This document shows, piece after piece, positions 11,996-46,129 of a DNA stretch of 64,000 nt. Positions within the stretch are counted from its first letter, which is position 1. Each line of letters begins with the position of its first letter. The notes under the pieces are model-generated. The model made no database searches. It saw nothing but the letters and a program-made list of their open reading frames with translations, and was not told the DNA's origin. A program made the translations under genes and the position numbers. This DNA comes from an uncultured Gammaproteobacteria bacterium (lineage in GTDB: Bacteria > Patescibacteriota > Patescibacteriia > Magasanikbacterales > GWA2-37-8). Where the stretch lies: positions 332,537 through 396,536 of the forward strand of contig CAYHBZ010000002.1 in the NCBI GenBank assembly GCA_964355175.1, read 5' to 3'.

Positions 11996-12000
11996 TTATT

Positions 12001-13290
12001 ATGTATAAAGTTCAAAAATTAAAAAATAAAATTACTCTGATCACGGTACCGCTTTCGGGTACCAAGGCTACTACTGTGCTCGTGATGGTGCCGGTAGGTT
12101 CGCGCTATGAGCACGAAAAAATTTCCGGCATCTCACATTTTGTAGAGCATGTGATGTTCAAAGGCACACATAAACGTCCAACCGCGCAAGATATTTCCCG
12201 CGTATTGGATGCGGCGGGAGCGGACTATAATGCTTTTACTAATAAAGACTATACCGGTTATTATGTTAAAATCGATTCTGCTCAACAGCGCCTCGCTTTT
12301 GATTTGATGGGGGATATGTTATTTAATTCCAAGTTTGAAGCGGTAGAAATTGAAAAAGAAAAAGGCGCAATTGTGGAAGAGTTGCGCATGTATGAAGATA
12401 ATCCTACAATGAATTTAGATACAGTTTATGAAAAACTGTTATTTGGCGATTGTCCTTTGGGTTGGGATGTCGGTGGTACAGAAAAAAGCGTACGCGGTAT
12501 TACTCACAGTGACATGTGGAATTATTATCAATCGGCTTATAAACCAGACAATATGGTATTGGTGGTGGCCGGTAAAATTGATAAAAAATTAAAAAATAAT
12601 TTGAAGTTTTTTGTAAATGACGATTATAAAAAGAATAAAACTAAGCAATCCATAAAGAAAGACACCTTTAAGAAATTTGCTTGGCCAAAAAATTTACCTT
12701 CTTTAAATGGTAGAGTAACGGTAAAAGAAAAAAAATTAGACCAGTCGCATGTGATCGTGGGTTTTCCTGGTTTATCACTAAATCATCCGGATAGATATGT
12801 GGCCACCGTATTGCTCAATATTTTGGGAGGCGGTATGAGCTCTCGTTTATTTGTGGAAGTGCGTGAAAAACGCGGGTTGGCCTATATGGTGCGAGCGGCC
12901 AGCAGTAATTATCGCGATGTCGGTACTATGTATGTTCAGGCCGGTTTGGATCCGGCGCGTTTGGCGGAAGCGATTCAAGTAATCCGTGCCGAACTGCAAC
13001 GCATAGTAAATGAGCCAGTAACAGAGAAAGAATTGGCCGATGCCAAGAGTAGTATTTGTGGACGAATGACTTTGGGCATGGAAGAATGTAGCTCTCAGGC
13101 CGAATGGTTTGCCAAGCAGTTTTTATTTTCCGATAAAATTAACACTTACGAAGAGGTGCTTGAAAAAATAAAAAAAGTTACGATAAAAGATGTCCAACGC
13201 GTCGCCGATAAAATTTTTGATTGGAAAGAAGTGCGAGCGGCCGCGATTGGTACTGTAAAAAAAGAAGATTTAATTAAAATTTTAAAATAA
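12001..13290 (+). CDS. M16-family (insulinase-like) zinc peptidase
   Basis: Inverted zinc-binding motif HFVEH (HxxEH) and pitrilysin-like layout. Confidence 0.85.
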   Translation: MYKVQKLKNKITLITVPLSGTKATTVLVMVPVGSRYEHEKISGISHFVEHVMFKGTHKRPTAQDISRVLDAAGADYNAFTNKDYTGYYVKIDSAQQRLAFDLMGDMLFNSKFEAVEIEKEKGAIVEELRMYEDNPTMNLDTVYEKLLFGDCPLGWDVGGTEKSVRGITHSDMWNYYQSAYKPDNMVLVVAGKIDKKLKNNLKFFVNDDYKKNKTKQSIKKDTFKKFAWPKNLPSLNGRVTVKEKKLDQSHVIVGFPGLSLNHPDRYVATVLLNILGGGMSSRLFVEVREKRGLAYMVRAASSNYRDVGTMYVQAGLDPARLAEAIQVIRAELQRIVNEPVTEKELADAKSSICGRMTLGMEECSSQAEWFAKQFLFSDKINTYEEVLEKIKKVTIKDVQRVADKIFDWKEVRAAAIGTVKKEDLIKILK

Positions 13291-24482: not shown

Positions 24483-27314
24483 ATGTCTTTTTTTACCAAA
24501 ATTTTCGGCGATCCCAACGCCAAAGTCTTAAAAGAAATTTATCCAATAGTGGATAAAATAAATTCTTTTGAACCGTCATTACAAACTTTGTCATTGGAAC
24601 AATTAAAAAATAAAACCACCGAATTTAAAGAGCGTTTGGCCAAAGGCGAAACTCTTGATGATATTTTACCGGAAGCTTTCGCGGTAGTGCGTGAGGTTTC
24701 TCGCCATGTTACCGGCATGCGTCATTTTGATGTACAGATGATTGGTGGTATTGTGTTGCATCGTGGACAAATTTCCGAAATGCGTACGGGTGAAGGTAAG
24801 ACTTTGGTAGCTACTTTGCCAGTATATCTCAATGCGCTCGCTGGAAAAGGTGTGCATTTGGTGACAGTCAATGATTATTTGGCCAAGCGTGATGCTGTTT
24901 GGATGAGTCAGATTTATGACGCGCTGGGCATGAGTGTTGGTATTATTCAGCAACAGCTCGTGTCATATAAATATAATCCTAATAAATTAAAAATCACCGA
25001 CGCTGATGGCAAAGACGCAATGAGCGAAGGTGGTAGTATCGACGCCGAGCGCGACGCCACCGGTGCGTTTAAGGTAGAATATGAATACCTGGAAAATTGT
25101 ACCCGCAAAGAAGCGTATGCTTGTGATATTACTTACGGCACCAACAATGAATTTGGTTTTGATTATCTGCGCGACAACATGGTGGGTAATTTATTCGAAA
25201 TGTCTCAGCGACCTTTTTATTTTGCGATCGTCGATGAAGTCGATTCCATTTTGATCGATGAAGCGCGCACACCGCTGATTATTTCAGCTCCAGCCGAAGA
25301 AGCGACCGATACTTATTATAAATTTTCCGACATCGTAAATACTTTGGAAGAAAAAGCAGATTACAACGTGGATGAAAAAATGCGCGCCAGCACTCTCACG
25401 GAAGCGGGTATCAAAAAGATCGAACAAAAACTCGGCGTAGAAAATATTTATGCCGATGGTAGTATGAGTATGGTGCATCACACCGAGCAGGCCTTGCGTG
25501 CTAAATCTCTTTTCAAACGTGATCGCGATTATGTGGTAGAAAATGGCGAAGTGATTATCGTGGACGAGTTCACCGGTCGCAAGATGGCGGGTCGTCGCTA
25601 TAATGAAGGTCTACACCAGGCGATAGAGGCCAAAGAGCGTGTGGCGATTCAGCGTGAAAGCCAAACCATGGCCACAATTACTTTTCAAAATTATTTCCGT
25701 CTTTACACCAAGCTCTCTGGTATGACCGGTACGGCTGTTACCGAAGCGGAAGAATTTGGCAAAATTTATAATTTGGAAGTAACGGTAATTCCTACCAACC
25801 GCGCTAATTTGCGCTCCGATCATCCGGATAGAATTTACAAAACCGAAGCCGCTAAATATCAGGCTATCGCCAAAACCGTAAAAGAATTACAATCCAAAGG
25901 CCAGCCGGTTTTGATTGGTACTATTTCGGTAGAAAAAAATGAAGCCCTTAGTCTGTATTTGGAAAGAGAAGGTATTAAACATGAAATTTTAAACGCTAAA
26001 AATCACGAACGAGAAGGTGAAATCATCGCTCAGGCCGGTCATGCGGGCGCGGTGACTATCGCTACCAACATGGCGGGTCGTGGTGTGGATATTATTTTGG
26101 GTGGTAATCCACCGGTAGTGGAGGAGGCTCAAAAAGTACGTGCCAACGGCGGTCTATTTGTAATCGGTACCGAGCGCCACGAAAGTCGCCGTATCGACAA
26201 TCAGCTTCGTGGTCGCGCCGGTCGTCAGGGTGATCCGGGTGAAACTCAATTTTATCTTTCTACCGAAGATGATCTCATGCGTATTTTTGCCGGCGACAGA
26301 ATTCGCTCCGTGATGCAGACTCTGCGCGTGCCGGATGATATGCCAATCGAGCAAGGTTCTATTACACGCATCATCGAATCCGCTCAGAAAAAAGTAGAAG
26401 GTTTCCATTTTGATTCTCGTAAACATTTGCTGGAATACGACGATGTGCTGAACCGTCATCGTGAAGTGATTTATGGTCGCCGCCGTCAGATTTTGGAAAT
26501 TTTTGAACAACAAAAGAATAATATTATTGCTGGCACAGACGTCGCCAACACTGCCGCCGCCGACACCAACAACGCTGTTATCACGAGCGCCAGCGAGGGA
26601 TCTGTGAAGTCGCCAGCAAAAACTCTCCAAGACCTAATTTTAGAAATGACCGAAAATGAGATCGAACAGCTTGTATCTTTTCATACCAATGCCGAAGATA
26701 AAAATGTCTGGGAGATGCAAGAATTGGTAGATAGTGTCGGTACGATTTATCCTTTGAGCGAAGAAGAAAGAAATAAAATTTTGAATCTGGGTGAACATGG
26801 CACTGAAAAATTGGAAGCGGTAGAAGCGCGCACTCATGTTATTGAAACCCTTACCAATTGGGCCAAAGAAAAATATCAGAAAATGCTGGTAGAAAAAATT
26901 AACAATCCACCAATCCAGGCTGAAGTAGAAAAACAAATTCTTTTGCGCGCTACTGATGGTCTCTGGATTGATCACCTTGTAGCCGTCGATTATCTGCGCG
27001 CCGGTATTGGTCTGCGCGGCTATGGTCAGCGCGATCCGTTGGTAGAATACAAACGCGAAACCTATCACATGTTCAATAGTTTGCTCTCCGCGATTTCGCA
27101 TGATGTAGTATATAATATTTTCAAAATAAATATCGGTATTCAGATGGGTGAAGATAATCTGGCCAGAAAAAATCTGGTCTACAGCGGCCCAGAGACTGAA
27201 TCCAAAATCGTCGATACTACTCACGTAAAAAACGAAGAAGGTGAAAAAGTGGGACGCAACGATTTGTGTCCGTGTGGAAGTGGGAAGAAGTATAAGCGGT
27301 GCCACGGCGCGTAA
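24483..27314 (+). CDS. secA: preprotein translocase ATPase SecA
   Basis: DEAD-like motor, preprotein cross-linking domain, C-terminal zinc finger CPCGSGKKYKRCHG. 943 aa. Confidence 0.95.
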   Translation: MSFFTKIFGDPNAKVLKEIYPIVDKINSFEPSLQTLSLEQLKNKTTEFKERLAKGETLDDILPEAFAVVREVSRHVTGMRHFDVQMIGGIVLHRGQISEMRTGEGKTLVATLPVYLNALAGKGVHLVTVNDYLAKRDAVWMSQIYDALGMSVGIIQQQLVSYKYNPNKLKITDADGKDAMSEGGSIDAERDATGAFKVEYEYLENCTRKEAYACDITYGTNNEFGFDYLRDNMVGNLFEMSQRPFYFAIVDEVDSILIDEARTPLIISAPAEEATDTYYKFSDIVNTLEEKADYNVDEKMRASTLTEAGIKKIEQKLGVENIYADGSMSMVHHTEQALRAKSLFKRDRDYVVENGEVIIVDEFTGRKMAGRRYNEGLHQAIEAKERVAIQRESQTMATITFQNYFRLYTKLSGMTGTAVTEAEEFGKIYNLEVTVIPTNRANLRSDHPDRIYKTEAAKYQAIAKTVKELQSKGQPVLIGTISVEKNEALSLYLEREGIKHEILNAKNHEREGEIIAQAGHAGAVTIATNMAGRGVDIILGGNPPVVEEAQKVRANGGLFVIGTERHESRRIDNQLRGRAGRQGDPGETQFYLSTEDDLMRIFAGDRIRSVMQTLRVPDDMPIEQGSITRIIESAQKKVEGFHFDSRKHLLEYDDVLNRHREVIYGRRRQILEIFEQQKNNIIAGTDVANTAAADTNNAVITSASEGSVKSPAKTLQDLILEMTENEIEQLVSFHTNAEDKNVWEMQELVDSVGTIYPLSEEERNKILNLGEHGTEKLEAVEARTHVIETLTNWAKEKYQKMLVEKINNPPIQAEVEKQILLRATDGLWIDHLVAVDYLRAGIGLRGYGQRDPLVEYKRETYHMFNSLLSAISHDVVYNIFKINIGIQMGEDNLARKNLVYSGPETESKIVDTTHVKNEEGEKVGRNDLCPCGSGKKYKRCHGA

Positions 27315-28487: not shown

Positions 28488-30551
28488 ATGGCCAAATATG
28501 TGAAGCCGACGGTCACTTTGACTAGAGTGCAGATTAAATGGAGGGTTGCTTGGATCGGAATTTTATTGGTAGTTTGTGGCCTGATAGTGTCTCCCCAATA
28601 CGCCAATCGTGGTGTTGATTGGGTCAATAGACAGACCAATCTTGGTGTACCTCGTTTACCTGAACAAGGCTTTAATTTAGGCTTGGATTTACAAGGCGGC
28701 GCTCATTTGGTGTACCAAACTGATACTACTCAGGTACCAGATGCCGACAAAGCTGATTCAGTAGAAGGTGTGCGTGATGTTATCGAACGTCGCGTGCGCG
28801 GAGGCCTGGGCGTATCCGAACCATTGGTGCAAACTACCAAAGTGGGAAATGATTATCGTATCATCGTAGAGCTTCCTGGTGTGACGGATGTAAATACCGC
28901 CATCAAAATGATTGGTGAAACTCCAGTACTCGAATTCAAAGAACAGAATGATCAACCTCCACGTGAATTGACCGCAGAAGAACAAAAACAATTGGATCAA
29001 TTCAACGCTAAAGCGACTGCCAAAGCCAACGCCGCTCTCAAAGAAGTAAAAAGTGGCGCGGATTTCGCTACCGTAGTAGCTAAATATACCGAAGACACCG
29101 CCAGCAAAAATAATGGTGGCGATCTTGGTTTTATTGATAACAAAATTTATCCAGAAATTTATAACTGGGCCAAAATTCACAAAGATGGGGAATACAGTAC
29201 CACTTTGGTAAAAAGTTTCGATGGTCTAAATATCCTCAAAAGAATTTCCGAGCGTCAGGGTGAAAAAGAAGTTTCTGCCGCCCATATCTTGATCTGTTAC
29301 AAAGGCGCCACTGCTTGCGATAATCCTCAGTATCTCACCAAAGGAGACGCTTTGAATAAAATTAAAGAAATTAAAGCGCAAGCCAACACTACAAATTTTT
29401 CTGATCTAGCCAAACAGTATTCCACTGAAGGGGCTGCCAAAACCACCGGTGGTGATCTTGGTACTTTTGGAAAAGGTGCAATGGTACCGGAATTTGAAAA
29501 AGCGGTTTTTGACGCTCCAATTGGTAGTATTTCCGAGCCGGTAGAAACTCAATTTGGTTATCATTTGATTTATAAAAAATCCGAACAGTTTGTGAAAGAA
29601 TATGATGTGGCCAGAATATTTGTGAAAACTCAGGAGAAAGCCGATATTGTGCCACCGACTGAAGAATGGAAAAGTAGTGGCTTGTCTGGTACTCAGCTCA
29701 AACGCGCTGAAGTGACTCAAGATTCTCGTACCGGACAAATCCAGGTAAGTTTGAATTTTGATGAGGCTGGTACAAAATTATTCTCTGAAATTACCGGTCG
29801 CAATGTAGGCAAGCCGGTGGCTATCTTCCTAGATGGTCAGCCAATTAGTATCCCAGTAGTAAATGAACCAATCTTGACCGGCAGTGCCGTAATTTCCGGT
29901 GGGTTTACTTTGCTAGAAGCCAAACAACTTTCTCAACGTCTAAATTCCGGTGCTTTACCAGTGCCGGTAGAATTAATCAGCCAGCAAAAAGTAGATGCTA
30001 CTTTGGGTAGCGATTCTTTGGCCAAAAGTTTCTATGCCGGTTTGATCGGGTTGCTCGGTGTGATGATCTTCATGGTTATCTATTATCGTTTACCAGGTGT
30101 GCTTTCCGTATTCTCCTTGGTGATTTATGCTTTGCTGAGTTTGGCCACCTTCAAATTAATTGGTGTAACTTTGACTCTGTCTGGTATCGCCGGTTTTATT
30201 TTGTCTATTGGTATGGCCGTGGATACGAATGTGCTCGTCTTTGAGCGTCTCAAAGAAGAATTACGCGCCGGCAAAAATCTCCACACCGCTTCGGAAGAAT
30301 CTTTCCGACGCTCTTGGCCATCTATTCGTGATGGTCATATCGCCACTCTGGTAAGCTGTGTATTCTTGGTCTGGTTTGGTACCGGCTTCGTACAGGGCTT
30401 TGCCGTGACTTTGGCTATCGGTGTGTTATTCAGTTTATTCACTGCTATCGTCGCTACTCGTGCCATGTCACGGTTGGTATTCAAATGGTTTGACGAAAAA
30501 GGCAATGTGCTTTTCTTGGGTTACACCAAGGGCAATGAAAATAATAAATAA
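28488..30551 (+). CDS. secD: protein translocase subunit SecD with two parvulin-type PPIase domains inserted in the periplasmic P1 region
   Basis: SecD N-terminus (LGLDLQGGAHLVYQ) and C-terminal membrane domain (..MAVDTNVLVFERLKEE..) flank two PpiC/parvulin signatures (..NNGGDLGFI.. and ..TTGGDLGTFGKGAMVPEFEKAVF..EPVETQFGYHLIYK). Confidence 0.85.
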   Translation: MAKYVKPTVTLTRVQIKWRVAWIGILLVVCGLIVSPQYANRGVDWVNRQTNLGVPRLPEQGFNLGLDLQGGAHLVYQTDTTQVPDADKADSVEGVRDVIERRVRGGLGVSEPLVQTTKVGNDYRIIVELPGVTDVNTAIKMIGETPVLEFKEQNDQPPRELTAEEQKQLDQFNAKATAKANAALKEVKSGADFATVVAKYTEDTASKNNGGDLGFIDNKIYPEIYNWAKIHKDGEYSTTLVKSFDGLNILKRISERQGEKEVSAAHILICYKGATACDNPQYLTKGDALNKIKEIKAQANTTNFSDLAKQYSTEGAAKTTGGDLGTFGKGAMVPEFEKAVFDAPIGSISEPVETQFGYHLIYKKSEQFVKEYDVARIFVKTQEKADIVPPTEEWKSSGLSGTQLKRAEVTQDSRTGQIQVSLNFDEAGTKLFSEITGRNVGKPVAIFLDGQPISIPVVNEPILTGSAVISGGFTLLEAKQLSQRLNSGALPVPVELISQQKVDATLGSDSLAKSFYAGLIGLLGVMIFMVIYYRLPGVLSVFSLVIYALLSLATFKLIGVTLTLSGIAGFILSIGMAVDTNVLVFERLKEELRAGKNLHTASEESFRRSWPSIRDGHIATLVSCVFLVWFGTGFVQGFAVTLAIGVLFSLFTAIVATRAMSRLVFKWFDEKGNVLFLGYTKGNENNK

Positions 30552-30555
30552 TCCT

Positions 30556-31464
30556 ATGATACCTTTTATTAAATACGCCAAATATTTATTGGCCGTAAGC
30601 GCGGTAGTAACGGTAATTAGTTTGGTCGCCCTTTTCACATGGGGATTAAAACCAAGTATTGATTTCACCGGCGGTTCATTGCTTGAAATAAGTTTCAGCA
30701 GTACTGTCCCAGACACTGCCGTTGTGGAAGCAACTCTGAAATCTGTTGGCCAAGAAAATGTCTTGATCCAAAAAACAGACGACAATAAATTAATTATTCG
30801 CACCGCTTTCTTGGATGAAGATGAACATCAAGCTGTGCTCAAAGGTTTACGCTCCAAATTTGAAACCAAAGACAATAAAGTAAACGAAGATCAGTTTGAA
30901 ACTATCGGTGCCGCTGTGAGTAGTCAACTCCGCAAGCGTGCTGTCACTGCGGTAATTTTGGTAGTGTTTAGCATCGTGGCCTTTGTGGCCTATGCTTTCC
31001 GCTCGGTGTCCTATCCGGTAGCCAGTTGGAAATATGGTGTTACCGCTATCATCGCCGCTATGCATGATGTATTGCTCGTAGTAGGTGTGTTTGCATTCCT
31101 CGGTCATTATCATAATGTAGAGGTAGATATTGGTTTTGTGGTGGCACTCCTCACAGTGATGGGCTACTCGGTGCAGGATACTATCGTAGTATACGATCGT
31201 ATTCGTGAAAATCTTTTGCACCGCCGCAGTGGCAACTTTAGTGAAATGATAGATATTGGTTTGAATGAAACTTTGATGCGTTCTATCAACACCACTTTGA
31301 TTACGATGATTCCTTTGACTGCTTTGTATATCCTCGGTGGTTCTAGTATCCATAATTTTGCTTTGGCTTTGTTGTTGGGTATTGCTTCCTGTGCTTATTC
31401 TTCTATCTTCGTAGCCAGCCCGTTGCTTGCTTATGTAGATAAATGGCAGAATAAAAAGAAATAA
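30556..31464 (+). CDS. secF: protein translocase subunit SecF
   Basis: Starts MIPFIKYAKYLLAV... with the SecF DFTGGS motif. The ORF-track start at 30421 overlaps secD and is probably upstream read-through in the same frame. Confidence 0.85.
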   Translation: MIPFIKYAKYLLAVSAVVTVISLVALFTWGLKPSIDFTGGSLLEISFSSTVPDTAVVEATLKSVGQENVLIQKTDDNKLIIRTAFLDEDEHQAVLKGLRSKFETKDNKVNEDQFETIGAAVSSQLRKRAVTAVILVVFSIVAFVAYAFRSVSYPVASWKYGVTAIIAAMHDVLLVVGVFAFLGHYHNVEVDIGFVVALLTVMGYSVQDTIVVYDRIRENLLHRRSGNFSEMIDIGLNETLMRSINTTLITMIPLTALYILGGSSIHNFALALLLGIASCAYSSIFVASPLLAYVDKWQNKKK

Positions 31465-31496: not shown

Positions 31497-31533
31497 AAAA
31501 CCCGCCCTCACAGAGTGCGGGTTTTTTATTTTT
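31497..31533 (+). terminator. rho-independent terminator
   Basis: AAACCCGC-CCTCACAGAGT-GCGGGTTTTTT. Confidence 0.75.
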
Positions 31534-31558
31534 GTGATATAATAATAGCATAATTATT

Positions 31559-31630
31559 TTGTCATTCTGAGTAAAACGAAGAATCCCTTAAAGTTTGGTA
31601 AAAGGGATCCTTCGCTACGCTCAGGATGAC
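31559..31630. repeat. inverted pair of short intergenic repeat units (GTCATTCTGAGTAAAACGAAGAATCCC ... GGGATCCTTCGCTACGCTCAGGATGAC)
   Basis: The two units are imperfect reverse complements separated by 16 nt and predict a long hairpin. The same unit recurs at 40473, 62941 and 63003. Confidence 0.6.
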
Positions 31631-31820
31631 AGTGTTTAAAAAAACTATGTCTGGTCATGGTAGTGGGGCAAGCAGTCGTCATCTCGTGGCTTTTTTGGCC
31701 ACGGCGGTGGCTGGCCTTGCCTTTATATCCGGCTATGCTTCCGGCCTGCACGGCTGGTGGTGGACCGCCTTTGGATTGGCGGTAGTATATGGCGGAGTAT
31801 ATAAAATTATAGACGCCTAG
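31626..31820 (+). CDS. small hydrophobic protein (64 aa), tentative
   Basis: Two predicted TM helices. Sits immediately upstream of the TraD-N-domain paralog. Could be spurious. Confidence 0.3.
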   Translation: MTVFKKTMSGHGSGASSRHLVAFLATAVAGLAFISGYASGLHGWWWTAFGLAVVYGGVYKIIDA

Positions 31821-31824
31821 AGCT

Positions 31825-33249
31825 ATGAATGATTTTTCTTTTTTCTCCGTTTTTGGTTTTACCATTAATTGGGATTTTTGGAATTGGATAGTGGTTCAGC
31901 CACCCAGCGATACTGTCTGGTATATTTTTGTTATTATTGGTTGGGCCGCGTTAGCACTCGTATTTTTCTATATGGGTGCTCATTTTTGGGTGAATTATCG
32001 CAGAGAAAAATATACGGCCAAATGGCAATGGATGGTATTGGCTGTGGATGTGCCACCGCTATATATTCAAACCCCAAAAGCGGTAGAGCAAATTTTTGCC
32101 CATCTCAGCGGCGCAAAAGTGGGTATCAGTATCAGGCAAAAATACTGGGAAGGAAAGAAACAAAAATATTTTAGTTTTGAAATAGTTTCGGTGGAAGGCT
32201 ATATCCAATTTCTCATTCGCACCGAAGCGGAATTTCGTGATTTGGTAGAAGCGGCCGTGTATGCGCAATATCCGGAAGCGGAAATTACCGAGATCGAGGA
32301 CTATGTGGATATGGTGCCAAATTCTTTTCCAAATTCCACCCATCATATGTTGGCGGTGGAATTCAAATTGGCCGATGCCGACGCTTATCCTATTCGTACC
32401 TATCCCAGCTTTGAATATAAAATTAGCAAAGACGATGTTTTCAGTGATCCGATGGCCGCGATTTTGGAAAACTTTTCTCGTATTGGTCATGGCGAAAATT
32501 TATGGTTTCAAATTATTCTCGAGCCTACGGGCAGTGCTTGGAAAACCAAAGGGATTGCTTTGCTAAAAAGTATTATTGCCGGTGATCACGGTCATCACGG
32601 TAATCCAGTCTTGAGTTTTATTGGCGATTTACCGATGAAGGTGGCCAAAGAATTATTTACCATAATGAATAACACTGAATTTAGCGGCCATGAAGAGGAG
32701 CACGCGCCAGTGGCCGGGAAAATTAGCGATCTGACGCCCGGCGTCAAATCTACTCTCGAAGCGATAGAAGATAAAATTGCCAAGATTGGTTTCAAAACAA
32801 AAATGCGCGCGGTGTATATGGCTCGCAACGAAGTGTTCAATCCCAGCCGCTGTATTGATGGCTTTGTTGGTGCGATGAACCAGTTTCATATTCAGAGTCG
32901 CAACGCGATAGTGCCAAGTTCGATAAGTCATGGACATTTTGTTTTTTTCAAACGCTGGCAACAAGAAATGTTGGATAATAAATTTATAAAAAATTATGTC
33001 AAAAGAAAAATCAAATCTGGCGCCAGTCCATACATATTAAACATTGAAGAGTTAGCCACGGTGTGGCATTTCCCATTACCATTTGTGAAGACCCCGCTTG
33101 TACAAAAATCCGGAGCAAAGCGTGGCGAACCGCCTATCAATCTTCCTGTGGATATGATCGAAAGCCCGCTAAAAGTGAAGACCAAAGGCCAAGCGCTGCC
33201 TCCGCCACCATTGCCCGAGCCCGAAGTGGAAGAATTGCCTTATGGATAA
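31825..33249 (+). CDS. membrane-anchored protein homologous to the N-terminal ~450-aa domain of the TraD/VirD4-like ATPase at 42993..45554 (no ATPase domain)
   Basis: Shared blocks include EIVSVEGYIQFLIRTEAEFRDLVEAAVYAQYPEAEITEIEDY vs SFEIVVKDAKISFYVAIPDKWKDFVEQQIHAQYPHAEISVETDY, and LATVWHFPLPFVKTP vs MASLWHMPVPNTETP. Single N-terminal TM helix and a Pro-rich C-terminus. Confidence 0.6.
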   Translation: MNDFSFFSVFGFTINWDFWNWIVVQPPSDTVWYIFVIIGWAALALVFFYMGAHFWVNYRREKYTAKWQWMVLAVDVPPLYIQTPKAVEQIFAHLSGAKVGISIRQKYWEGKKQKYFSFEIVSVEGYIQFLIRTEAEFRDLVEAAVYAQYPEAEITEIEDYVDMVPNSFPNSTHHMLAVEFKLADADAYPIRTYPSFEYKISKDDVFSDPMAAILENFSRIGHGENLWFQIILEPTGSAWKTKGIALLKSIIAGDHGHHGNPVLSFIGDLPMKVAKELFTIMNNTEFSGHEEEHAPVAGKISDLTPGVKSTLEAIEDKIAKIGFKTKMRAVYMARNEVFNPSRCIDGFVGAMNQFHIQSRNAIVPSSISHGHFVFFKRWQQEMLDNKFIKNYVKRKIKSGASPYILNIEELATVWHFPLPFVKTPLVQKSGAKRGEPPINLPVDMIESPLKVKTKGQALPPPPLPEPEVEELPYG

Positions 33250-33255
33250 AATTAA

Positions 33256-33281
33256 AGCCCTCAGTGATGAGGGCTTTTTGT
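33256..33281 (+). terminator. rho-independent terminator
   Basis: AGCCCTCA-GTGA-TGAGGGCT then TTTTTG. Confidence 0.8.
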
Positions 33282-33311
33282 TTAATCTAAAGCAAAATAA
33301 AGGCAAATAGA

Positions 33312-34085: not shown

Positions 34086-34616
34086 TTATTTTGTTGTCTG
34101 TAAACTTGTTTCCGGAACCAATTTTTTTATCATTTCATATCCGCCAATCAGTACACCGCTGTAGAATAAGTTGCTTATAATTTCATTGCGCCAGAAGGGG
34201 AGAGCCATATAATAGCTTTGCAACAATCCGGAAAAGTCATGAGTGTACATGGTGCCAAATAGCCAGACTGCGCCATTGGTAAGTAAGAAGAAAATTAGAC
34301 TACCGGAAAGTACACCGATGATAACATTGGAAACGCCAATTTTATTTTTTAGATATTGGCCGATTAGCACCATCAAAACAAATCCAACATATACTGAAGC
34401 CATAATTGATGGGCGATAGAAACCAATAAAGATATCGCTGATAAACATTGCCGCCAAAGGTAAAAGCAAAGATTCTTTTTTGCCCAGATATAAACCGGCA
34501 AATAGAGCGACCGCGCCCATAGCGGTAAAATTACCAGGGTGAGGCATGAAGCGGGTGGCAATGGCCAGGATTATTAGCAGGTAGATAGGTAATTTTTTCA
34601 TAAGTTCAGTAATCAT
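34086..34616 (-). CDS. 6-TM membrane protein resembling ECF-transporter S components (substrate-capture subunit), tentative
   Basis: 176 aa, six hydrophobic helices, size and topology typical of vitamin-specific ECF S components. Last gene of a minus-strand cluster with the DUF4430 protein and the giant surface protein. Confidence 0.4.
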   Translation of the reverse strand: MITELMKKLPIYLLIILAIATRFMPHPGNFTAMGAVALFAGLYLGKKESLLLPLAAMFISDIFIGFYRPSIMASVYVGFVLMVLIGQYLKNKIGVSNVIIGVLSGSLIFFLLTNGAVWLFGTMYTHDFSGLLQSYYMALPFWRNEIISNLFYSGVLIGGYEMIKKLVPETSLQTTK

Positions 34617-34628
34617 TTAGTGGCTAAA

Positions 34629-37600
34629 TTATAGCACATTCTTTATCAATCTCAAACCTAAGTACAGTCCAAGCGCGGCGGCACTGCCTCCGGTCACAGC
34701 GAGCACTTTTTTGGCGGTGCGGCGGGTAGGAGTGTCGAGCGGCAAGTCGTCGATTGGGCTGGTTTTGTCTTCTATTTTTTCTGCGGAGCTTAATTGCTGC
34801 TGTTGTTTAAGAGAAGTGATATTGTCAGATGAGTTGTTGGAATCATTGTTGGTGGTAGGGGAAACAGCTACCACTTTGACAGTAGGTTGTGCTACCAAAA
34901 TCACTGGTTTGGTTTCAGGTAATTCTGTTGCTAGCACGACAGTGGTCGTAGCGGGGGTAGTGGTTGCTATGGTCGTGGTAGCTACTGTAGTGGTGGCAAT
35001 GGTAGTGGTTGCTATAGTAGTGGTAGGAGTACTCGTAGGAATTACAATAATTTCAGAAGATCCACCCGAGCCAGTAGTGACAGATTTTGGATCCAAAGTT
35101 ATTGGCCAAGATTTTCCAAGCATAGCTGGTACGGCAGATTTCGTGCCAAACCAATCAATGCCACCATCCCAGGATTGAGTGAAATGATCATTATTTAAAG
35201 TTGTCAAAATATACCAAGGGTTTTTTCCGACAGAATTAAACCATTCATTTTGGCCTTCTCCCAAAGCATTAATACCCATCACAGCCCAGCTGGTCGTCAG
35301 GCTGTCTGACTCAGCACAGCCATTAGTGTAATCATAGCAACCCCAGCCACCATCGGTGTGCTGTTGGTTTTTTAGATATTGTTTTGCTTTTGTATAAATA
35401 TCGGCATTCACAGTCGCGCCATTATTTTCGGCATACTTCAAAGCATTCACAGCCGCACCCGTAAGATCTGGTGATTCAAATGGACCGGGATAAGCGAAAC
35501 CACCGTCGGCTTCTTGATTGGCTTTGATTGCACTGAGCGTGGTCTGCACTACTGGTGAATTTTGGTCTTCGCCGATAGCAATGGCCGCGATCAAACCAAA
35601 TATGTCATCGTTAATTCCAGTTTGTCCAAAGATGTTATTTTGTACGCATGCGTCTAGCTTTGTTTTTAGGGCAATAATTTTGCTGTCATTTTTGGCGACA
35701 CTACTGGCGAGCAAACCTAAAATGTGACGAGGGTAAGCGGCGCAACTATTTAATTCTGTGTCTAAAAGACTACTATCGTAGTTGTATAGATAATTATAAA
35801 GAGACGAACTGGAATTTTTTACATCCGCGGCGTAAATATTTTTGGCGGCAAAAGTCAGGGCCAACCAATCCGAAGTGCCGGCGTCGATAATTTTACCATC
35901 AGCGCTTTGGTTGGTTTTGATAAAGTTAATTAATTTTGTGACAGCGCTGTCTATAGCGGTGGTGGAAATTAGTTGGTTGCTAGGAGAGCTGGATCCACCG
36001 CCGGAAGTGGAAGTAGTGCTGGTAGTATTTTGGTTGCTAGGCAAGTCGGTCACTACCAGTGTAATAGGCGCGCTCCATTTTAAGTAATTTTCATCGGTAA
36101 TTTTGGCAGAGTATGTGCCGGTGCTACTAAAATTATAGTAAGCCACACCTTGGTCATTGCTCAGTGTGGTGGAAACTGTAATGTCTGTGTCCCACCAGCC
36201 GGTAGGAGTAGGATTGGGAATAGTGATGGCCACTAAATCATTTGGATCCAAAACCCATTCGTTGCTTAGGTCGCTGTAATTATATTTCCAAGTATAAAAT
36301 GGCGTGGAAGTATTGATATAGACATTATTACTTGGGGTCGTAATTTTCCAAGAGTCTCCAAAATAAATATAAATATTTTCACCACCGTTTAAGGTCATAC
36401 TGCCCATACCAACTTGAGGGTAGACATTATTAACAACATAATTCCAATTACCACAAGTGGATGTGGCGATGCTTTCAATGTATAAACAGTTCAGATAATA
36501 GCCATAGTCGGAGAGTTGTAGATCGGATATAGAAAAGGTGGTAGTATTTTGAGCCGCATTTATTAAAGCTGTAAGAACGGTGGTCGAGGTAGTGGAAGTA
36601 GTTAATCCTTGGTTGTATGTAATCAAGGTATTGGTGGATAAAGTTACAGGACCAGAAAAAACAAAACCATTTTGATAACGGATATTTAGGTTAACAGTTA
36701 AATCTGTGGAGCTGGCAGTGCTAGCAACAGAACCTGTGTCCTCTGGTGTAGGCGCAACATACGGATCAAAAGTAAAGTTATTTATAATAAATTCATTGGT
36801 AGTATTGTTGGTTGGAATCAATCCTCTGTATTGCCAAAAATTTATATCTACCAAGGCATTGCTTGGGTCAAAATTATTGGTACTACCATCGGTGCTGGTT
36901 GTGTATGTCCAGCTACTGATGGTATTTCCATTTTGAGTGGTACTAAAATTAATTTTATCTGGTTGCCAATCGATAATATCTTCAAAAATACCATCGGAGA
37001 AAGTGGCCACTGAAATTTGTTTGTTGCCATCTTTACTGCCAGGCTGTACGACATAGAATAGATTATCACTGCCAGTTTCATCGGCCCAGTAAGAATGTTC
37101 GATGTCCAGTTCGTGACTATCATCCTGGTATAAAAAAGGCGCGGCTACCAGATTATGATCGAGTAAATCAGGGCGAGTGTTTATTTCAAAAGTATATTTT
37201 CCGTAACCTAAAGAAGCAGGTAGATAAACTTCGGAAGAGTACCATTTCTGATCATCTGCGTGTTGGGAAACTCTTAAGTGTAGGGCGGATCCGTCCAGGA
37301 AGACATCTTTATCCGTATTGCCCCAATTATTTTTAATTCCTGTATCTGTAATGCCGGGTAGTCCAGTTCCGCCTCGCACTTTCCAGGTGCGACCGGCAAA
37401 ATCTATTGTGTCCAAGATTGTGGGTCCAAAAGCTTCAAGAATTAAGGGAGTGAAGTTTTCGGTGGTAGTGGTGGTGCTGTTTGTTTCGGTTGATTGAGTA
37501 GTCTCGGCCTCTATAACGGTAGTAGTGGAAGTGGAGGATGTTTCTTCAGTGGTGGTAGTGTTTTCTTCTGCCCGACTGTTACCGGCCACAAATACTATTC

Positions 37601-37655
37601 CCAAAATAATTATCGCCCCCCAGATCAGTTGTTTTTTAAAATTGAGGTACTTCAT
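34629..37655 (-). CDS. giant cell-surface protein: signal peptide, GH16/concanavalin-like domain, Thr-rich linkers, prenyltransferase/terpene-cyclase-like alpha/alpha-toroid repeats, C-terminal TM anchor
   Basis: HELDIEH matches the GH16 catalytic ExDxE motif. ..QEADGGFAYPGPF..TDGGWGCYDY.. resemble squalene-cyclase/prenyltransferase repeats. Long T/S-rich low-complexity runs. C-terminal VLAVTGGSAAALGLYLGLRLI anchor. Confidence 0.65.
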   Translation of the reverse strand: MKYLNFKKQLIWGAIIILGIVFVAGNSRAEENTTTTEETSSTSTTTVIEAETTQSTETNSTTTTTENFTPLILEAFGPTILDTIDFAGRTWKVRGGTGLPGITDTGIKNNWGNTDKDVFLDGSALHLRVSQHADDQKWYSSEVYLPASLGYGKYTFEINTRPDLLDHNLVAAPFLYQDDSHELDIEHSYWADETGSDNLFYVVQPGSKDGNKQISVATFSDGIFEDIIDWQPDKINFSTTQNGNTISSWTYTTSTDGSTNNFDPSNALVDINFWQYRGLIPTNNTTNEFIINNFTFDPYVAPTPEDTGSVASTASSTDLTVNLNIRYQNGFVFSGPVTLSTNTLITYNQGLTTSTTSTTVLTALINAAQNTTTFSISDLQLSDYGYYLNCLYIESIATSTCGNWNYVVNNVYPQVGMGSMTLNGGENIYIYFGDSWKITTPSNNVYINTSTPFYTWKYNYSDLSNEWVLDPNDLVAITIPNPTPTGWWDTDITVSTTLSNDQGVAYYNFSSTGTYSAKITDENYLKWSAPITLVVTDLPSNQNTTSTTSTSGGGSSSPSNQLISTTAIDSAVTKLINFIKTNQSADGKIIDAGTSDWLALTFAAKNIYAADVKNSSSSLYNYLYNYDSSLLDTELNSCAAYPRHILGLLASSVAKNDSKIIALKTKLDACVQNNIFGQTGINDDIFGLIAAIAIGEDQNSPVVQTTLSAIKANQEADGGFAYPGPFESPDLTGAAVNALKYAENNGATVNADIYTKAKQYLKNQQHTDGGWGCYDYTNGCAESDSLTTSWAVMGINALGEGQNEWFNSVGKNPWYILTTLNNDHFTQSWDGGIDWFGTKSAVPAMLGKSWPITLDPKSVTTGSGGSSEIIVIPTSTPTTTIATTTIATTTVATTTIATTTPATTTVVLATELPETKPVILVAQPTVKVVAVSPTTNNDSNNSSDNITSLKQQQQLSSAEKIEDKTSPIDDLPLDTPTRRTAKKVLAVTGGSAAALGLYLGLRLIKNVL

Positions 37656-38265
37656 ATTTCCAAGTTAGTGAATCGTTATTTTTTAAAATATAATTTGAGA
37701 TGCCCGTTTGCGCCGGTTTGCTATTGAGGTAGTAGATCCAGTATTTGCCGGCATTCTTATCGGTTTTGACTCCATCGATTTCATCTACGAAATATCCTAG
37801 GCTAGAAAATGGTTTGAAAATGGCAGTGATTTTTTTCTCGTCTACCAGCTGTGCCATCGCGTCATAGGCCGTAGATTTTTCGGCCATCAGCAATGAATAG
37901 TTTTGGCCGTTAATTATTATCGTAACACTCAGAGTATTTTTTTCTGGAATTGGAGTGGTGGTTGGGGTGGCTTCGGAAGGTGTGTCAGTCGCCACGTTAG
38001 AATTTTTTTGTTCAGGCTGTCTGGTTTCTTTTTTCTGTTCCGGTACGGTCAGAGTGGTGTTGGTGGCGACATCAGACCAAGGCAGACTTTGCGCCACAGG
38101 AGCGGGCGAGACTGGTTTGGGTGTCGCGGCTTTATTTGGCAGTAGCAGATAGGCGCCGCTAGCTAGGGCCATGAATATTAGGACCATCCAGAGCCGCGTT
38201 AGGTGTTTGTTATGCATATTGTTATTTAAAAAAGAAAAAACCCTTTCCCGGGAGAAAAGATTCAA
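37636..38265 (-). CDS. secreted/anchored DUF4430-domain protein (transcobalamin beta-domain-like)
   Basis: C-terminal ..SAYDAMAQLVDEKK..GYFVDEIDG..KYWIYYLNS..WKYEV.. matches the DUF4430 pattern. N-terminal TM helix and a Pro/Thr-rich linker. Overlaps the start of the giant surface-protein gene by 20 nt. Confidence 0.55.
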   Translation of the reverse strand: MNLFSRERVFSFLNNNMHNKHLTRLWMVLIFMALASGAYLLLPNKAATPKPVSPAPVAQSLPWSDVATNTTLTVPEQKKETRQPEQKNSNVATDTPSEATPTTTPIPEKNTLSVTIIINGQNYSLLMAEKSTAYDAMAQLVDEKKITAIFKPFSSLGYFVDEIDGVKTDKNAGKYWIYYLNSKPAQTGISNYILKNNDSLTWKYEVPQF

Positions 38266-42992: not shown

Positions 42993-45554
42993 CTACAGGG
43001 AAACTTCACTCATATCAATACCAGTAGTTGGCTTGGAAACACCCAGCTGGGCGCGTTCGGCAATTTCGGCTTCCACGATTTCACGCGCGCGTCCATATTT
43101 GAGACGAGAGAGCTCTTTTATCGCTTCGGCCAGTTCTTTATTGCCTGGTTTTGGCGGATAGGTCATCATGTTGAATGGTTTGGCGGCGGTGTTGTCGATC
43201 AATAATTTTGTATAGGCAGTATATTGCTCCACATTTACCAAATCATAGGCGGAGAAAACCGGAGCAAATTCTTTTTGTAAAATATCGGCGTCTTCCACAC
43301 CGATGCGGAAAGAAACAATGGTACCGGCGTTACCAAGTACGGCGTCGCGCACGGCGGATTTGCCTTTGTTATCTTCCAATTGTTTCATGTATTGATGGGC
43401 GATGATTAGTTCAAGACGATATTTACGCGCCTCGGAAAGAATGGTGGCGATAGAATCAGTAATAAAGTTTTGGAACTCATCAATATATAGATAGAAGTCA
43501 TGGCGCTGATCCTCGGGCATATTGGCGCGCTCTAGAGCAGCCATCTGTAATTTGGACACGATAATCATACCCAAAAGATTGGAGTTGATTTCGCCGGTCA
43601 AACCTTTGGCCAGATTTACAATCAAAATTTTCTTTTGATCCATCACTTCACGGAAATTAAAACCGGAATGAGATTGGCCAATAATATTACGCACCATCGC
43701 GTTTTCAGTAAAACGGCCTACTTTGGAAATCAAATAACCCAACATTTCTGATTTGTGAAAATCTGAAGTCTTGGCCATTTCTTTTTCCCAGAAAGCCAGT
43801 ACCACCGGATCGTTTAATTTCTTTTTCCATTTGGCTACATAAGTATCGTCGGTAAACATGCGTGGTACTTCGGCGATAGTGCCTGGAGTCTCCATATCAG
43901 CCATCAAAGTCAACATCACATTGCGCATTTGGTGTTCAAACATCGGGCCGATCATCGATGGGTCCGTCACCATTTTATAGAAGATTGCGATCATTTCCTG
44001 AGTAGCAAAATCTTTTTGTCCCTCGGTTTTTACTTCAAGCATATTCAGCCCTATTGGACGATCGGTATCGGATGGATTGAAATAAATAACATCATCCGCG
44101 CGTTCTTTTGGTACGTGTTGTAACACATATTCGGCAAAGTCACCGTGCGGATCGATAATACAAACACCTTCGCCGTTTTGCACATCCTGGATAGCAAGAT
44201 TTTGGATGAACACGGATTTACCGGAACCAGATTTACCAATGGTATAAAGATGGCGACGACGATCATCACGTTTCATTTTTACTATAATTTCCTGACCGCG
44301 ATAAACCGAACGGCCCAAAATAATACCATCGGTAGGCATGTTGGTTGGTGGGGGAGCTTTGCGTGCGCCGAGCCAGTTGATATGTGGAGTTTCGGTATTT
44401 GGTACTGGCATATGCCAGAGCGAGGCCATCTCTTCGGTATTTACTACCATATAACGATTCGCATCCGGGGAGCGGTAGATGGATTCGCGAATAATTTTAT
44501 TCTGATTTTTTGGTACGGCCGCGCCAAAGGAATTGCCGTAGCGATAGATATTATATTGCGAAAAAGAATTCACGATATTTTCCAAATTCATTTTGGCCTT
44601 TTGTTGGCTGTCGGAGGAGCTCACCAAGCGTACCGTTAATTCCAGCCCGCCGTGAGAAATTTTTTCTTCCATGGTTTTCACCATTTCTTCTTCCATTTGG
44701 GTGAGATGATATTCTTTGGCACCACCATGAGCCGCGTCTTTATTTTTTGGAAAAAGTATTTTACCCCATTTGCTCAGAGAGCGCACAAAGGCACTGCGAC
44801 GAGCGACATATTCAAATTTTTGTCCCTCGCGAATGTCGCGGATCATGTGCACGCCCTGTTTGCGCCATTTGGAGGTGGCCGGACGAACGATATATTGTAA
44901 CAACGCGCCTTCGTTTTCAGATATTTTGCTTAGTGGATTGAGGATCGACAAAAGAGGATCGGCATCCATTTTTTTGAAAGTTTTTAGCGGGAATGCCGAG
45001 CGGCTTTTGAGAAATAAAGAAGCGGCCATGATATGACTCTGTGGTTTGAAAAGATTATAATCGGTTTCCACGGAAATTTCAGCGTGCGGATATTGAGCGT
45101 GAATTTGTTGCTCCACAAAATCTTTCCATTTGTCTGGGATAGCGACATAAAAAGAAATTTTGGCGTCTTTGACTACGATTTCAAAAGACAGGTGATCATT
45201 GCGTCCAAAAAACCATTTGGAAAATCCTTTGTCGGCTTTGAGGCCGGCGATAGCCGAAAACATGGTATCGGCAATGGCAATATATTCGCGGGTCTGAGTA
45301 ATATTTTGTTCGTTGCCGGATTGATTTTGGGTACTGTCACTCTTTTTTTCTTTTGGCACTTTGATCAATATGATGGTGCGATGAAAGGCTTTGCCTTCGT
45401 GATTGGTGGCCTGAAAAATCGCTCGCGCTAAAAATATCAAACCAATAAGCACGGCCCAACCGGCTACAAACAAAAAGCCGGCCAAGAATACAGGCTGTTG
45501 AATTCCATCCGCGAACCAGTTGGATAGGTATGTAAATAGGGAGCCGGAGTCCAT
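42993..45554 (-). CDS. TraD/TraG/VirD4-family type IV secretion coupling-protein-like ATPase with a large N-terminal membrane-anchored domain
   Basis: Walker A (YTIGKSGSGKS), Walker B (LYIDEFQNF), and a C-terminal TraG-D_C-like region (..IIAHQYMKQLED..GNAGTIVSFRIG..). The N-terminal ~450 aa is paralogous to ORF 31825..33249. Confidence 0.7.
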   Translation of the reverse strand: MDSGSLFTYLSNWFADGIQQPVFLAGFLFVAGWAVLIGLIFLARAIFQATNHEGKAFHRTIILIKVPKEKKSDSTQNQSGNEQNITQTREYIAIADTMFSAIAGLKADKGFSKWFFGRNDHLSFEIVVKDAKISFYVAIPDKWKDFVEQQIHAQYPHAEISVETDYNLFKPQSHIMAASLFLKSRSAFPLKTFKKMDADPLLSILNPLSKISENEGALLQYIVRPATSKWRKQGVHMIRDIREGQKFEYVARRSAFVRSLSKWGKILFPKNKDAAHGGAKEYHLTQMEEEMVKTMEEKISHGGLELTVRLVSSSDSQQKAKMNLENIVNSFSQYNIYRYGNSFGAAVPKNQNKIIRESIYRSPDANRYMVVNTEEMASLWHMPVPNTETPHINWLGARKAPPPTNMPTDGIILGRSVYRGQEIIVKMKRDDRRRHLYTIGKSGSGKSVFIQNLAIQDVQNGEGVCIIDPHGDFAEYVLQHVPKERADDVIYFNPSDTDRPIGLNMLEVKTEGQKDFATQEMIAIFYKMVTDPSMIGPMFEHQMRNVMLTLMADMETPGTIAEVPRMFTDDTYVAKWKKKLNDPVVLAFWEKEMAKTSDFHKSEMLGYLISKVGRFTENAMVRNIIGQSHSGFNFREVMDQKKILIVNLAKGLTGEINSNLLGMIIVSKLQMAALERANMPEDQRHDFYLYIDEFQNFITDSIATILSEARKYRLELIIAHQYMKQLEDNKGKSAVRDAVLGNAGTIVSFRIGVEDADILQKEFAPVFSAYDLVNVEQYTAYTKLLIDNTAAKPFNMMTYPPKPGNKELAEAIKELSRLKYGRAREIVEAEIAERAQLGVSKPTTGIDMSEVSL

Positions 45555-45562
45555 CTTCTTAA

Positions 45563-46129
45563 TTATAATAATTTATCGGATTGTTTTTCTTTTTCCATTT
45601 TGTGTAATTGTACCATGCTGTCGGTTTTTATTTTTGCTTCTTGTTCCAAGAAAAATTTATTGAGACCAGGCAGGACTTTGAGCCAATCGATTATCAAAAG
45701 TAAAATCTTTTTTACTTTTATATGCGTGTCTTGCAAAAGCTCTTTAATTTTTATGGCGGTTTCTTCGCCCTTGATCTTGAATTCTTGCTTGGCAATGGGG
45801 GATAGCTTTATGTATTGATCGGCCAATCCGCTTTCTAATATTTTTTCAATTTTTATTACAGTCGGATCCTGGACTTGGGGTAGGGGTTTGTGGTGTTTTT
45901 TTACGGCCAAAGGAGCGGGACGACGCTGGGCGCCTTCTTGAGTTCTTTTTTTGTCTTCTACCGGAGTATTTTCGGTTTTTTCGTTTTCGTGATTTTGCTC
46001 CTGTTCGGACTGTTCTTGTACATGCAAATCACGCGAGCGAGCAAACTCCTCGCTTAGGTTGTCTAAATTTTTATCATTCATAGTTGGGAATATTATACCA
46101 TTATTTTTATTAAAACAAAAGCAAAGCAT
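45563..46129 (-). CDS. charged hypothetical protein, co-directional and immediately upstream of the TraD-like gene
   Basis: 188-aa ORF (more likely starting at MNDKNL, ~46081). An 8-nt gap to the downstream gene suggests co-transcription. Confidence 0.4.
   Translation of the reverse strand: MLCFCFNKNNGIIFPTMNDKNLDNLSEEFARSRDLHVQEQSEQEQNHENEKTENTPVEDKKRTQEGAQRRPAPLAVKKHHKPLPQVQDPTVIKIEKILESGLADQYIKLSPIAKQEFKIKGEETAIKIKELLQDTHIKVKKILLLIIDWLKVLPGLNKFFLEQEAKIKTDSMVQLHKMEKEKQSDKLL

Follow-up and report, generated by a model that had tools for sequence, protein, structure and literature searches.

What is the function of a protein that carries the N-terminal domain of a TraD-like ATPase without the ATPase itself? 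The question is raised by a gene at positions 31825..33249 (+) of the window, the whole 64-kb stretch of DNA analyzed here, which comes from a housekeeping region of a Candidatus Magasanikbacteria genome (Patescibacteria, or Candidate Phyla Radiation). The gene encodes a stand-alone protein of 474 residues, referred to below as the target, which belongs to the Pfam family DUF8128 (PF26449). A preliminary description had proposed that this protein displays a duplicated surface domain and acts as a receptor or secretin-like partner of the ATPase. We lean, with modest confidence, toward a different answer, in which the target is a typical member of a catalogued, uncharacterized family and the anchor half of a split motor resembling type IV coupling proteins (T4CPs) and VirB4, with the adjacency to the ATPase gene lost in this lineage.

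The ATPase in question is an 853-residue protein encoded at 42993..45554 (−) next to dnaX, in which a transmembrane (TM) helix and a DUF8128 domain are fused to a T4CP/VirB4-type ATPase. Residues 417-761 of this fused paralog match TrwB_AAD_bind, T4SS-DNA_transf, DUF87 and TraG-D_C; the protein also matches the NCBIfam TraD/VirD4 models and is 72-96% identical across Magasanikbacteria. BLASTP with composition-based statistics aligned the target with it at 121 bits (E 2e-33, 25% identity, 461 columns), the alignment containing both sequence blocks quoted in the preliminary description, covering the N-terminal 410 residues of the fused protein and ending where the ATPase domain begins. The concern that such a similarity might reflect compositional bias was not borne out, since 500 residue shuffles of the ATPase N-domain gave at most 28.5 bits compared to 122 bits for the real sequence, and the domains alone, without TM helix and tails, still aligned at 104 bits (E 1.2e-29). 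Precomputed matches list PF26449 for both the target and the fused paralog, as they do for an identical protein and all but one of 120 listed homologs of the target. When the ATPase N-domain was searched on its own, most of the matches were fragments.

The lack of an ATPase region in the target was also confirmed. Pfam and NCBIfam scans found no P-loop and no ATPase-family match, and neither the Walker A/B NTPase nor the all-alpha domain of T4CPs, both present in the fused paralog, was found. These scans gave no family match for the target, the Pfam copy scanned being one without the PF26449 model, and PDB sequence searches with the target and with a 79-sequence profile gave no match either. 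PADLOC defense models (HerA-type and others) did not match the target, the small protein encoded upstream of it or the downstream open reading frame (ORF), and the fused paralog gave generic ATPase-domain matches only.

Membrane anchoring of the target, as initially described, agrees with the single N-terminal TM helix at residues 28-56 (31906..31992, +), which is the only Kyte-Doolittle segment of at least 1.5 and falls within a long helix at residues 27-64 of the AF2 model. The flanking charges, −3 on the N side and +2 with four Lys/Arg on the C side, predict an N-out/C-in orientation. The DUF8128 alpha/beta domain follows at about residues 65-425 (32017..33099, +), as delimited by the AF2 model, invariant columns and Foldseek, and is predicted to be cytoplasmic. 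Its predicted local distance difference test (pLDDT) values are mostly above 85, and it contains the family-invariant motifs AQYP.AE and EELA..WHFP. Every column invariant in both paralog types is kept, including Q148 of AQYP and E409, H415 and P417 of EELA..WHFP. The domain is closed by an EPPINLP motif at residues 435-441 (33127..33147, +), with P436, P437 and P441 nearly invariant, and pairwise alignment identified this motif as the counterpart of APPPTNMP, which lies where DUF8128 meets the ATPase in the fused paralog. A Pro-rich tail, also anticipated in the preliminary description, ends in EELPYG at residues 469-474 (33229..33246, +), the clade version of the PPxNLPF C terminus of orthologs. 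The complete model is confident (pLDDT 83.5, predicted template modeling score (pTM) 0.78), and in it the alpha/beta domain is preceded by a long TM helix and followed by a disordered tail.

Whether this domain could be exposed on the cell surface depends on the side of the membrane it faces. The fused paralog has one hydrophobic helix at residues 18-50, with an acidic N-flank and a K/R-rich C-flank, and its DUF8128 is joined to the ATPase domain without another TM segment, which would place DUF8128 on the membrane face where ATP is available. Homology and the positive-inside rule predict a cytoplasmic location for the target as well. A membrane anchor and a Pro-rich tail are superficially compatible with an extracytoplasmic surface receptor or a secretin-like partner of a translocase. 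However, this topology and the fusion of the homologous domain to an ATPase without an intervening TM segment argue against such a role, as does an alpha/beta fold that matches the N-domain of the cytoplasmic ATPase VirB4. Pfam and NCBIfam scans of the target and of 92 family members also gave no match to a signal peptide, a secretin or another extracytoplasmic family. We consider a surface or secretin-like function very improbable.

The survey of N-domain architectures that the preliminary description had suggested was performed on 80 loci, which a diverse DUF8128 alignment had retrieved from the species genomes of GTDB and which span Magasanik-, Uhr-, Falkow-, Buchanan- and Kerfeldbacteria, Parcubacteria and others, and it revealed split as well as fused forms. 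Of the 72 loci that extend far enough downstream, 53 have a separate T4CP-like ATPase ORF directly 3' of the stand-alone DUF8128 gene, at a gap of −131 to +143 nucleotides (nt); no ATPase gene was present within at least 2 kb in 19 loci, and 8 loci were too short to judge. The split ATPase ORFs are 526-962 residues long, show 40-47% identity to the C-terminal half of the fused ATPase of the window and share with it the Walker A context DDRRRH.Y.IGK[ST]G.GK[ST]. Their alignment begins at residues 1-8 of this C-terminal half in most loci, and as late as residue 20 in a few, which maps the split to the point where DUF8128 and ATPase meet in the fused form. In-frame read-through, or one ORF spanning the split DUF8128 and ATPase, was considered and rejected, as the two never formed one ORF and same-frame cases occurred at the one-third chance rate. 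An N-terminal TM helix was detected in 73 of the 80 DUF8128 proteins, and no TM segment in 45 of 48 split ATPases. A profile search with E up to 1e-3 returned 3,912 DUF8128 cluster representatives (50% identity clusters), nearly all of the top 150 being 420-690 residues long, so most members of the family appear to be stand-alone.

In the split ATPases (for example, locus L026, 9521-11605), a long K/R-rich disordered tail harbors a CxxC-x17-CxxC zinc ribbon (TIGR04272, 40.8 bits compared to a cutoff of 36), and this combination suggests binding of nucleic acids. One locus (L074) apparently has two copies of the ribbon. On the DUF8128 side, 75 of 80 orthologs have N[LIM]P, LP[YF] or [YF]G within the last eight residues, the typical C terminus being PPxNLP[FIVT] followed by 0-2 residues. 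Short DUF8128 proteins end at the domain-closing EPPxNLP, and longer ones add a disordered linker and a second copy of the motif at the C terminus. In the fused paralog, APPPTNMP is directly followed by the first strand of the ATPase domain.

The target is the ortholog of the DUF8128 gene that precedes the separate ATPase gene in this split system. It is 34-60% identical to split-type DUF8128 proteins, whereas the N-domain of the fused paralog is only 21-27% identical to them, and a neighbor-joining tree nested the target in the split-type clade within a monophyletic Magasanikbacteria group (L008-L020). The initial view of a duplicated domain therefore holds in that the two window proteins are true paralogs, but it was incomplete in that the target is orthologous to the DUF8128 gene that stands first in a widespread system of two genes, the other encoding the ATPase.

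In the Magasanikbacteria group the second gene is missing from its expected position. None of the members with enough downstream sequence has an adjacent ATPase gene; secF lies upstream in all but one, and the small upstream gene is found in most. Where downstream sequence sufficed, no ATPase gene was found within 8-10 kb downstream in L001, L004, L005, L008-L020, L089, L090 or L101. In the window, a 160-residue ORF and then opposite-strand genes follow the target, with no ATPase among them, and six other Magasanikbacteria contigs, L004 among them, show this locus structure as well. A second clade without the ATPase gene (L048, L055, L063, L070, L072 and L076) indicates that DUF8128 and the ATPase were uncoupled more than once. 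This second clade retains the canonical C-terminal motif, and the terminal motif of the window's clade is (E/D)(E/D)LPY(G/A), or EEYG/KFG, a change that hints at an altered partner in Magasanikbacteria. An unlinked ATPase partner in the genome of the window is plausible, because three T4CP-profile matches are listed for one Magasanikbacteria assembly (PMC12102498, Table S3); no further ATPase was found in the regions around the DUF8128 genes of that lineage.

Absence of the adjacent ATPase gene in the clade could also mean that the target is a decaying remnant of gene fission without current function. The ratio of nonsynonymous to synonymous substitution rates (dN/dS) speaks against this. It is 0.056-0.09 for the target, with 0.056 and 0.076 obtained against orthologs 91% and 78% identical to it, and 0.07-0.08 for secF. 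With values in the same range as those of secF, the target gene is functional and under strong purifying selection. Full-length intact ORFs in all clade members sampled, the retention of the invariant motifs and an operon of its own, bounded by terminators and shared with a conserved partner gene, are likewise at odds with decay, and we regard this explanation as scarcely credible.

The partner gene in this operon encodes a two-TM miniprotein (31647..31820, +) and ends 4 nt upstream of the target. It corresponds to the small hydrophobic ORF that the preliminary description had placed before the target. Gene callers give 57 residues, and an alternative ATG at 31626 would extend it to 64. Its sequence is kept in L001, L004, L005, L008-L013, L017-L021, L026, L089, L090 and L101, with the conserved motif RH..F...GY.SG..GWWWT...Y, two hydrophobic segments and a dN/dS of 0.12-0.15, and it matched no Pfam or NCBIfam family. 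Upstream of the miniprotein gene, an intrinsic-terminator hairpin (31497..31531, +; −15.8 kcal/mol, z −4.24) followed by the U-run UUUUUUAUUUUU lies after secF and separates secDF from the miniprotein and DUF8128 genes. A second hairpin with a U-run, identified by the scan (33254..33283, +; −16.1 kcal/mol, z −4.89), starts 5 nt past the target stop codon. With terminator hairpins on both sides, the miniprotein and DUF8128 genes form their own two-gene unit. An extended −10-like element, TGaTATAAT, was read from the sequence about 100 nt upstream of the miniprotein start (31535..31543, +) and is possibly the promoter of this unit; a two-hexamer promoter scan did not report it.

These boundaries bear on the possibility that the target is an ATPase-independent membrane scaffold that acts with SecDF or envelope proteins in export or envelope biogenesis. 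The secD and secF genes (28488..31464, +) are the conserved upstream synteny partners of the DUF8128 gene: SecF is encoded no more than 2.5 kb upstream in 41 of 62 evaluable loci, and secD-secF lie immediately upstream in nearly all clade members. Strong purifying selection without an adjacent ATPase and the altered C-terminal motif of the window's clade would also suit a scaffold. However, a strong terminator stands between secF and the unit, and in L004 the DUF8128 gene lies downstream of murE and a penicillin-binding protein gene in place of secDF. The synteny may simply be inherited gene order, and the only detectable relatives of the domain are fused or adjacent to T4CP-like ATPases. A Sec or envelope scaffold is conceivable, and we regard it as unlikely.

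In the structural comparison, the strongest matches were to a secretion ATPase. When the target model was searched against PDB with Foldseek, matches 1-11 were all TrwK/VirB4 of the R388 type IV secretion system (T4SS), with a probability of 0.84-0.99, E from 1.3e-3, about 440 aligned columns and query template modeling scores (TM-scores) of 0.30-0.35; all other PDB matches were much weaker. For the 853-residue fused protein, the model (pLDDT 75.5, pTM 0.51) gave an alignment of more than 900 columns with full-length VirB4 (E 3.6e-13). Full-length VirB4 outranked TrwB and other T4CPs, HerA and the VirB4 C-domain, all of which cover just the ATPase half. We hold with moderate confidence that DUF8128 resembles the VirB4 N-domain in its modeled fold, a resemblance that is distinct from demonstrated homology.

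On balance, and with a confidence that goes only somewhat beyond an even judgment, we favor the target being the anchor/adaptor half of a two-part VirB4/T4CP-like motor that now works with an ATPase encoded elsewhere. The target would be a single-pass inner-membrane protein with DUF8128 facing the cytoplasm. In the two-gene system of its orthologs, the gene of the membrane-anchored DUF8128 protein directly precedes that of a soluble homolog of T4CP/VirB4-type hexameric ATPases, usually downstream of secD-secF, and this pair is the split form of the one-polypeptide TM-DUF8128-ATPase protein. By analogy with the N-terminal domain of VirB4, DUF8128 would tether and organize the motor at the membrane, and in the split form the C-terminal PPxNLPF-type peptide may dock the ATPase. 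The miniprotein-DUF8128-ATPase order in L021 and L026, together with the fused form, fits the logic of VirB3 and VirB4 and is consistent with DUF8128 as a membrane-proximal motor organizer. The clade-specific two-TM miniprotein may be a VirB3-like partner, since its gene order and its two hydrophobic segments fit. In the Magasanikbacteria clade of the window, the cognate ATPase gene has ceased to be adjacent and the anchor is kept in its own operon with the miniprotein. Since it is kept there under selection, the anchor most likely still works with an ATPase encoded elsewhere, which may be the fused paralog 10 kb away, reached through DUF8128-DUF8128 contacts, or an unlinked T4CP-like ATPase. 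The motor substrate would probably be nucleic acid.

Several observations weigh against this anchor assignment. The miniprotein-DUF8128 unit is transcriptionally isolated, and no partner ATPase was found beside the target or in the 64-kb window except the fused paralog. The drift of the C-terminal motif from NLPF to ELPYG/EEYG in the window's clade may reflect a changed partner or function. With a pTM of 0.51, the inter-domain geometry of the fused model is uncertain, and the resemblance to VirB4 is at the level of the fold only, with low TM-scores (0.30-0.35). In hhalign comparisons, DUF8128 profiles gave a probability below 1% with TrwK alone and with ten aligned VirB4 sequences, taken whole or as N-domains, and 0.4% with TrsD. 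Likewise, hmmscan of 92 diverse DUF8128 members with E up to 10 gave no recurrent Pfam family and no PF03135. In related comparisons, DUF8128 profiles against TrsE and phage G gp155 also stayed below 1%, and a profile of the fused protein gave a weak match to TrwK near the Walker A region (probability 6.7%).

The fused paralog invites one more explanation, in which the target is a regulator, either a non-catalytic "outside" subunit of the fused DUF8128-ATPase or a brake on it, acting through hetero-oligomers formed by domain-domain contacts and thereby altering the stoichiometry or activity of the motor. The paralog, about 10 kb away, is the only T4CP-like ATPase in the window and the sole region matched by split-type ATPase queries; no second T4CP-like ATPase or CxxC-x17-CxxC domain was found in the window. 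The two genes share contigs in many Magasanikbacteria, the family-invariant residues are kept in both paralogs, and R388 VirB4 dimers are formed purely by N-terminal domains. Against this, the two DUF8128 domains are only 25% identical, a dedicated ATPase lies beside the ortholog in most lineages, and the three T4CP-profile matches in one Magasanikbacteria genome leave room for other partners. We find a purely regulatory role improbable.

Elements of these proposals can also be combined. The DUF8128 anchor and a soluble ATPase, with its CxxC zinc ribbon and a tail that binds nucleic acids, would then be a conserved, T4SS-independent two-part translocation motor beside secDF, the Magasanikbacteria anchor and its VirB3-like miniprotein would form the non-catalytic "outside" subunit of the fused motor, and DUF8128 would be a long-missed homolog of the VirB4 N-domain. 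We put this forward tentatively, as a conjunction that is doubtful as a whole. If it is true, the uncoupled anchor mirrors the central/outside dimer of VirB4, and the evolution of T4CPs and VirB4 is linked.

The split system is of interest beyond the window. Most T4CP-like ATPases of Patescibacteria lie far from T4SS genes, and at least two of these paralog lines share the DUF8128 N-terminal module. As a conserved secDF-linked cluster, the split form offers concrete subunit pairs, namely anchor and ATPase, anchor and miniprotein, and a C-terminal peptide with its docking site, and Magasanikbacteria provide a natural anchor-only variant for telling the role of the anchor from that of the motor. 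If the link to VirB4 holds, the system also bears on the divergence of coupling proteins and VirB4.

The surroundings of the DUF8128 genes showed further features. In the window, secA (24483-27314), secD (28488-30551, +) and secF (30556-31464, +) precede the target, and SecD has parvulin/PpiC rotamase domains inserted between its first periplasmic domain and the P1 head, as do the SecD proteins of L005, L089, L090 and L101. A conserved protein of about 386 residues with an N-terminal sigma-70 region-4-like helix-turn-helix is encoded directly upstream of DUF8128 in 37 of the 80 loci (for example, L065, ORF from 278). In many lineages outside Magasanikbacteria its gene stands between secF and DUF8128; it is not present in the locus of the window. 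Just downstream of the target (34086-38265, −), genes for a DUF6580 protein, a Thr-rich protein of 1008 residues that has a TM anchor at its C terminus and matches SQHop_cyclase_C faintly, and a DUF4430 protein form a cluster that is syntenic in L001, L089, L090 and L101. L004 has, 1.3 kb downstream of its DUF8128 gene, bAvd and reverse transcriptase (RVT_1) genes (10762-12179) that resemble a diversity-generating retroelement.

Near the fused paralog, a protein of 172-188 residues without a family match is encoded directly upstream (window 45563-46129, −; L012 16892-17374, 45% identity), and an ORF of similar size occupies the same position in L102. A type IV pilus set (pilM, response regulator, pilin and prepilin peptidase) lies about 6 kb from the fused gene (51149-54082, +), and this proximity is kept in a second Magasanikbacteria contig (L102 3687-6645). 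Elsewhere in the window, a 1073-residue ORF (4667-7888, +) has no Pfam match at E up to 1e-3. Many Patescibacteria-type contigs (L008, L009, L014, L017 and others) are titled "uncultured Gammaproteobacteria bacterium", an apparent labeling artifact.

Among known systems, T4CPs such as TrwB, VirD4 and TraD resemble the fused paralog and the split ATPases, which match T4CP profiles and the TrwB structure. Canonical T4CPs, however, have a short two-TM N terminus in place of the 340-residue DUF8128 domain, and the target itself lacks the NTPase domain. A published survey found 5,713 VirD4-like T4CP homologs in 2,918 Patescibacteria genomes, of which only 148 lie near virB4 (PMC12102498). The one T4CP tested, in Southlakia, was dispensable for epibiotic growth, and the authors raised the possibility of exaptation for other functions (PMC12102498).

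A further relative is gp156 of Bacillus phage G, which by profile and model comparisons is a true homolog combining DUF8128 and a T4CP-like ATPase (hhalign against the DUF8128 profile, probability 97.6, E 2.6e-12; Foldseek against the target, E 1e-18). The corresponding group phrog_5156 matched the fused paralog far better (2e-90) than the target (2e-12), and among viral models the target also matched the compact VirB4-like gp155 of phage G (E 4e-6). Unlike the target, gp156 apparently has no TM anchor and is always in the fused form. In phage G it is part of a T4SS-like module (L100 1821-7385) with the TrbL/VirB6-like gp153, gp154 and the VirB4-like gp155 (TraG P-loop/AAA_10), and related genes occur in SPO1-like and other Bacillus phages (phrog_5156).

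In concept, the target recalls TrsD of pSK41/pGO1, which likewise stands alone and is similar to the N-terminal portion of VirB4-type ATPases, and the pSK41 order trsC (VirB3-like), trsD (VirB4-N-like) and trsE (ATPase) parallels miniprotein, DUF8128 and ATPase. However, TrsD of pSK41 has 227 residues and no profile similarity to DUF8128. The TrsD homologs of Patescibacteria are a different family, with PF11130 matches and positions beside virB4 (PMC12102498); the target has no PF11130 match, and no virB4 was found in the window.

In structure, the best and essentially only significant PDB match to DUF8128 is VirB4 (TrwK of R388), apparently in its N-domain. The TrwK N-domain is of similar size, is cytoplasmic and membrane-proximal, as predicted for DUF8128, and would hold a comparable place, N-terminal to a RecA-type ATPase of the same superfamily. 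The N-terminal domain of R388 VirB4 (residues 15-400) lies under the membrane, where it is wrapped by the TM protein VirB3, and the dimer of central and outside VirB4 is held together by this domain alone (PMC9259494); a small TM partner and oligomer contacts are thus features of the VirB4 N-domain. DUF8128 differs in having its own TM helix, in the absence of sequence or profile similarity and in the low TM-scores. Moreover, its ATPase partner scores as a T4CP (TraD/VirD4) by sequence, and the target is not in a T4SS cluster. Literature searches found no paper on DUF8128 or PF26449, nor any description of the module in split or fused form, of its link to secDF or of its C-terminal motif. Pfam catalogues DUF8128, shared by the target, the listed homologs and the N-terminal half of the fused ATPase, as a family without function or structure, and to this entry the present analysis adds a predicted topology, a fold resemblance, the split and fused architectures, the synteny and the C-terminal motif.

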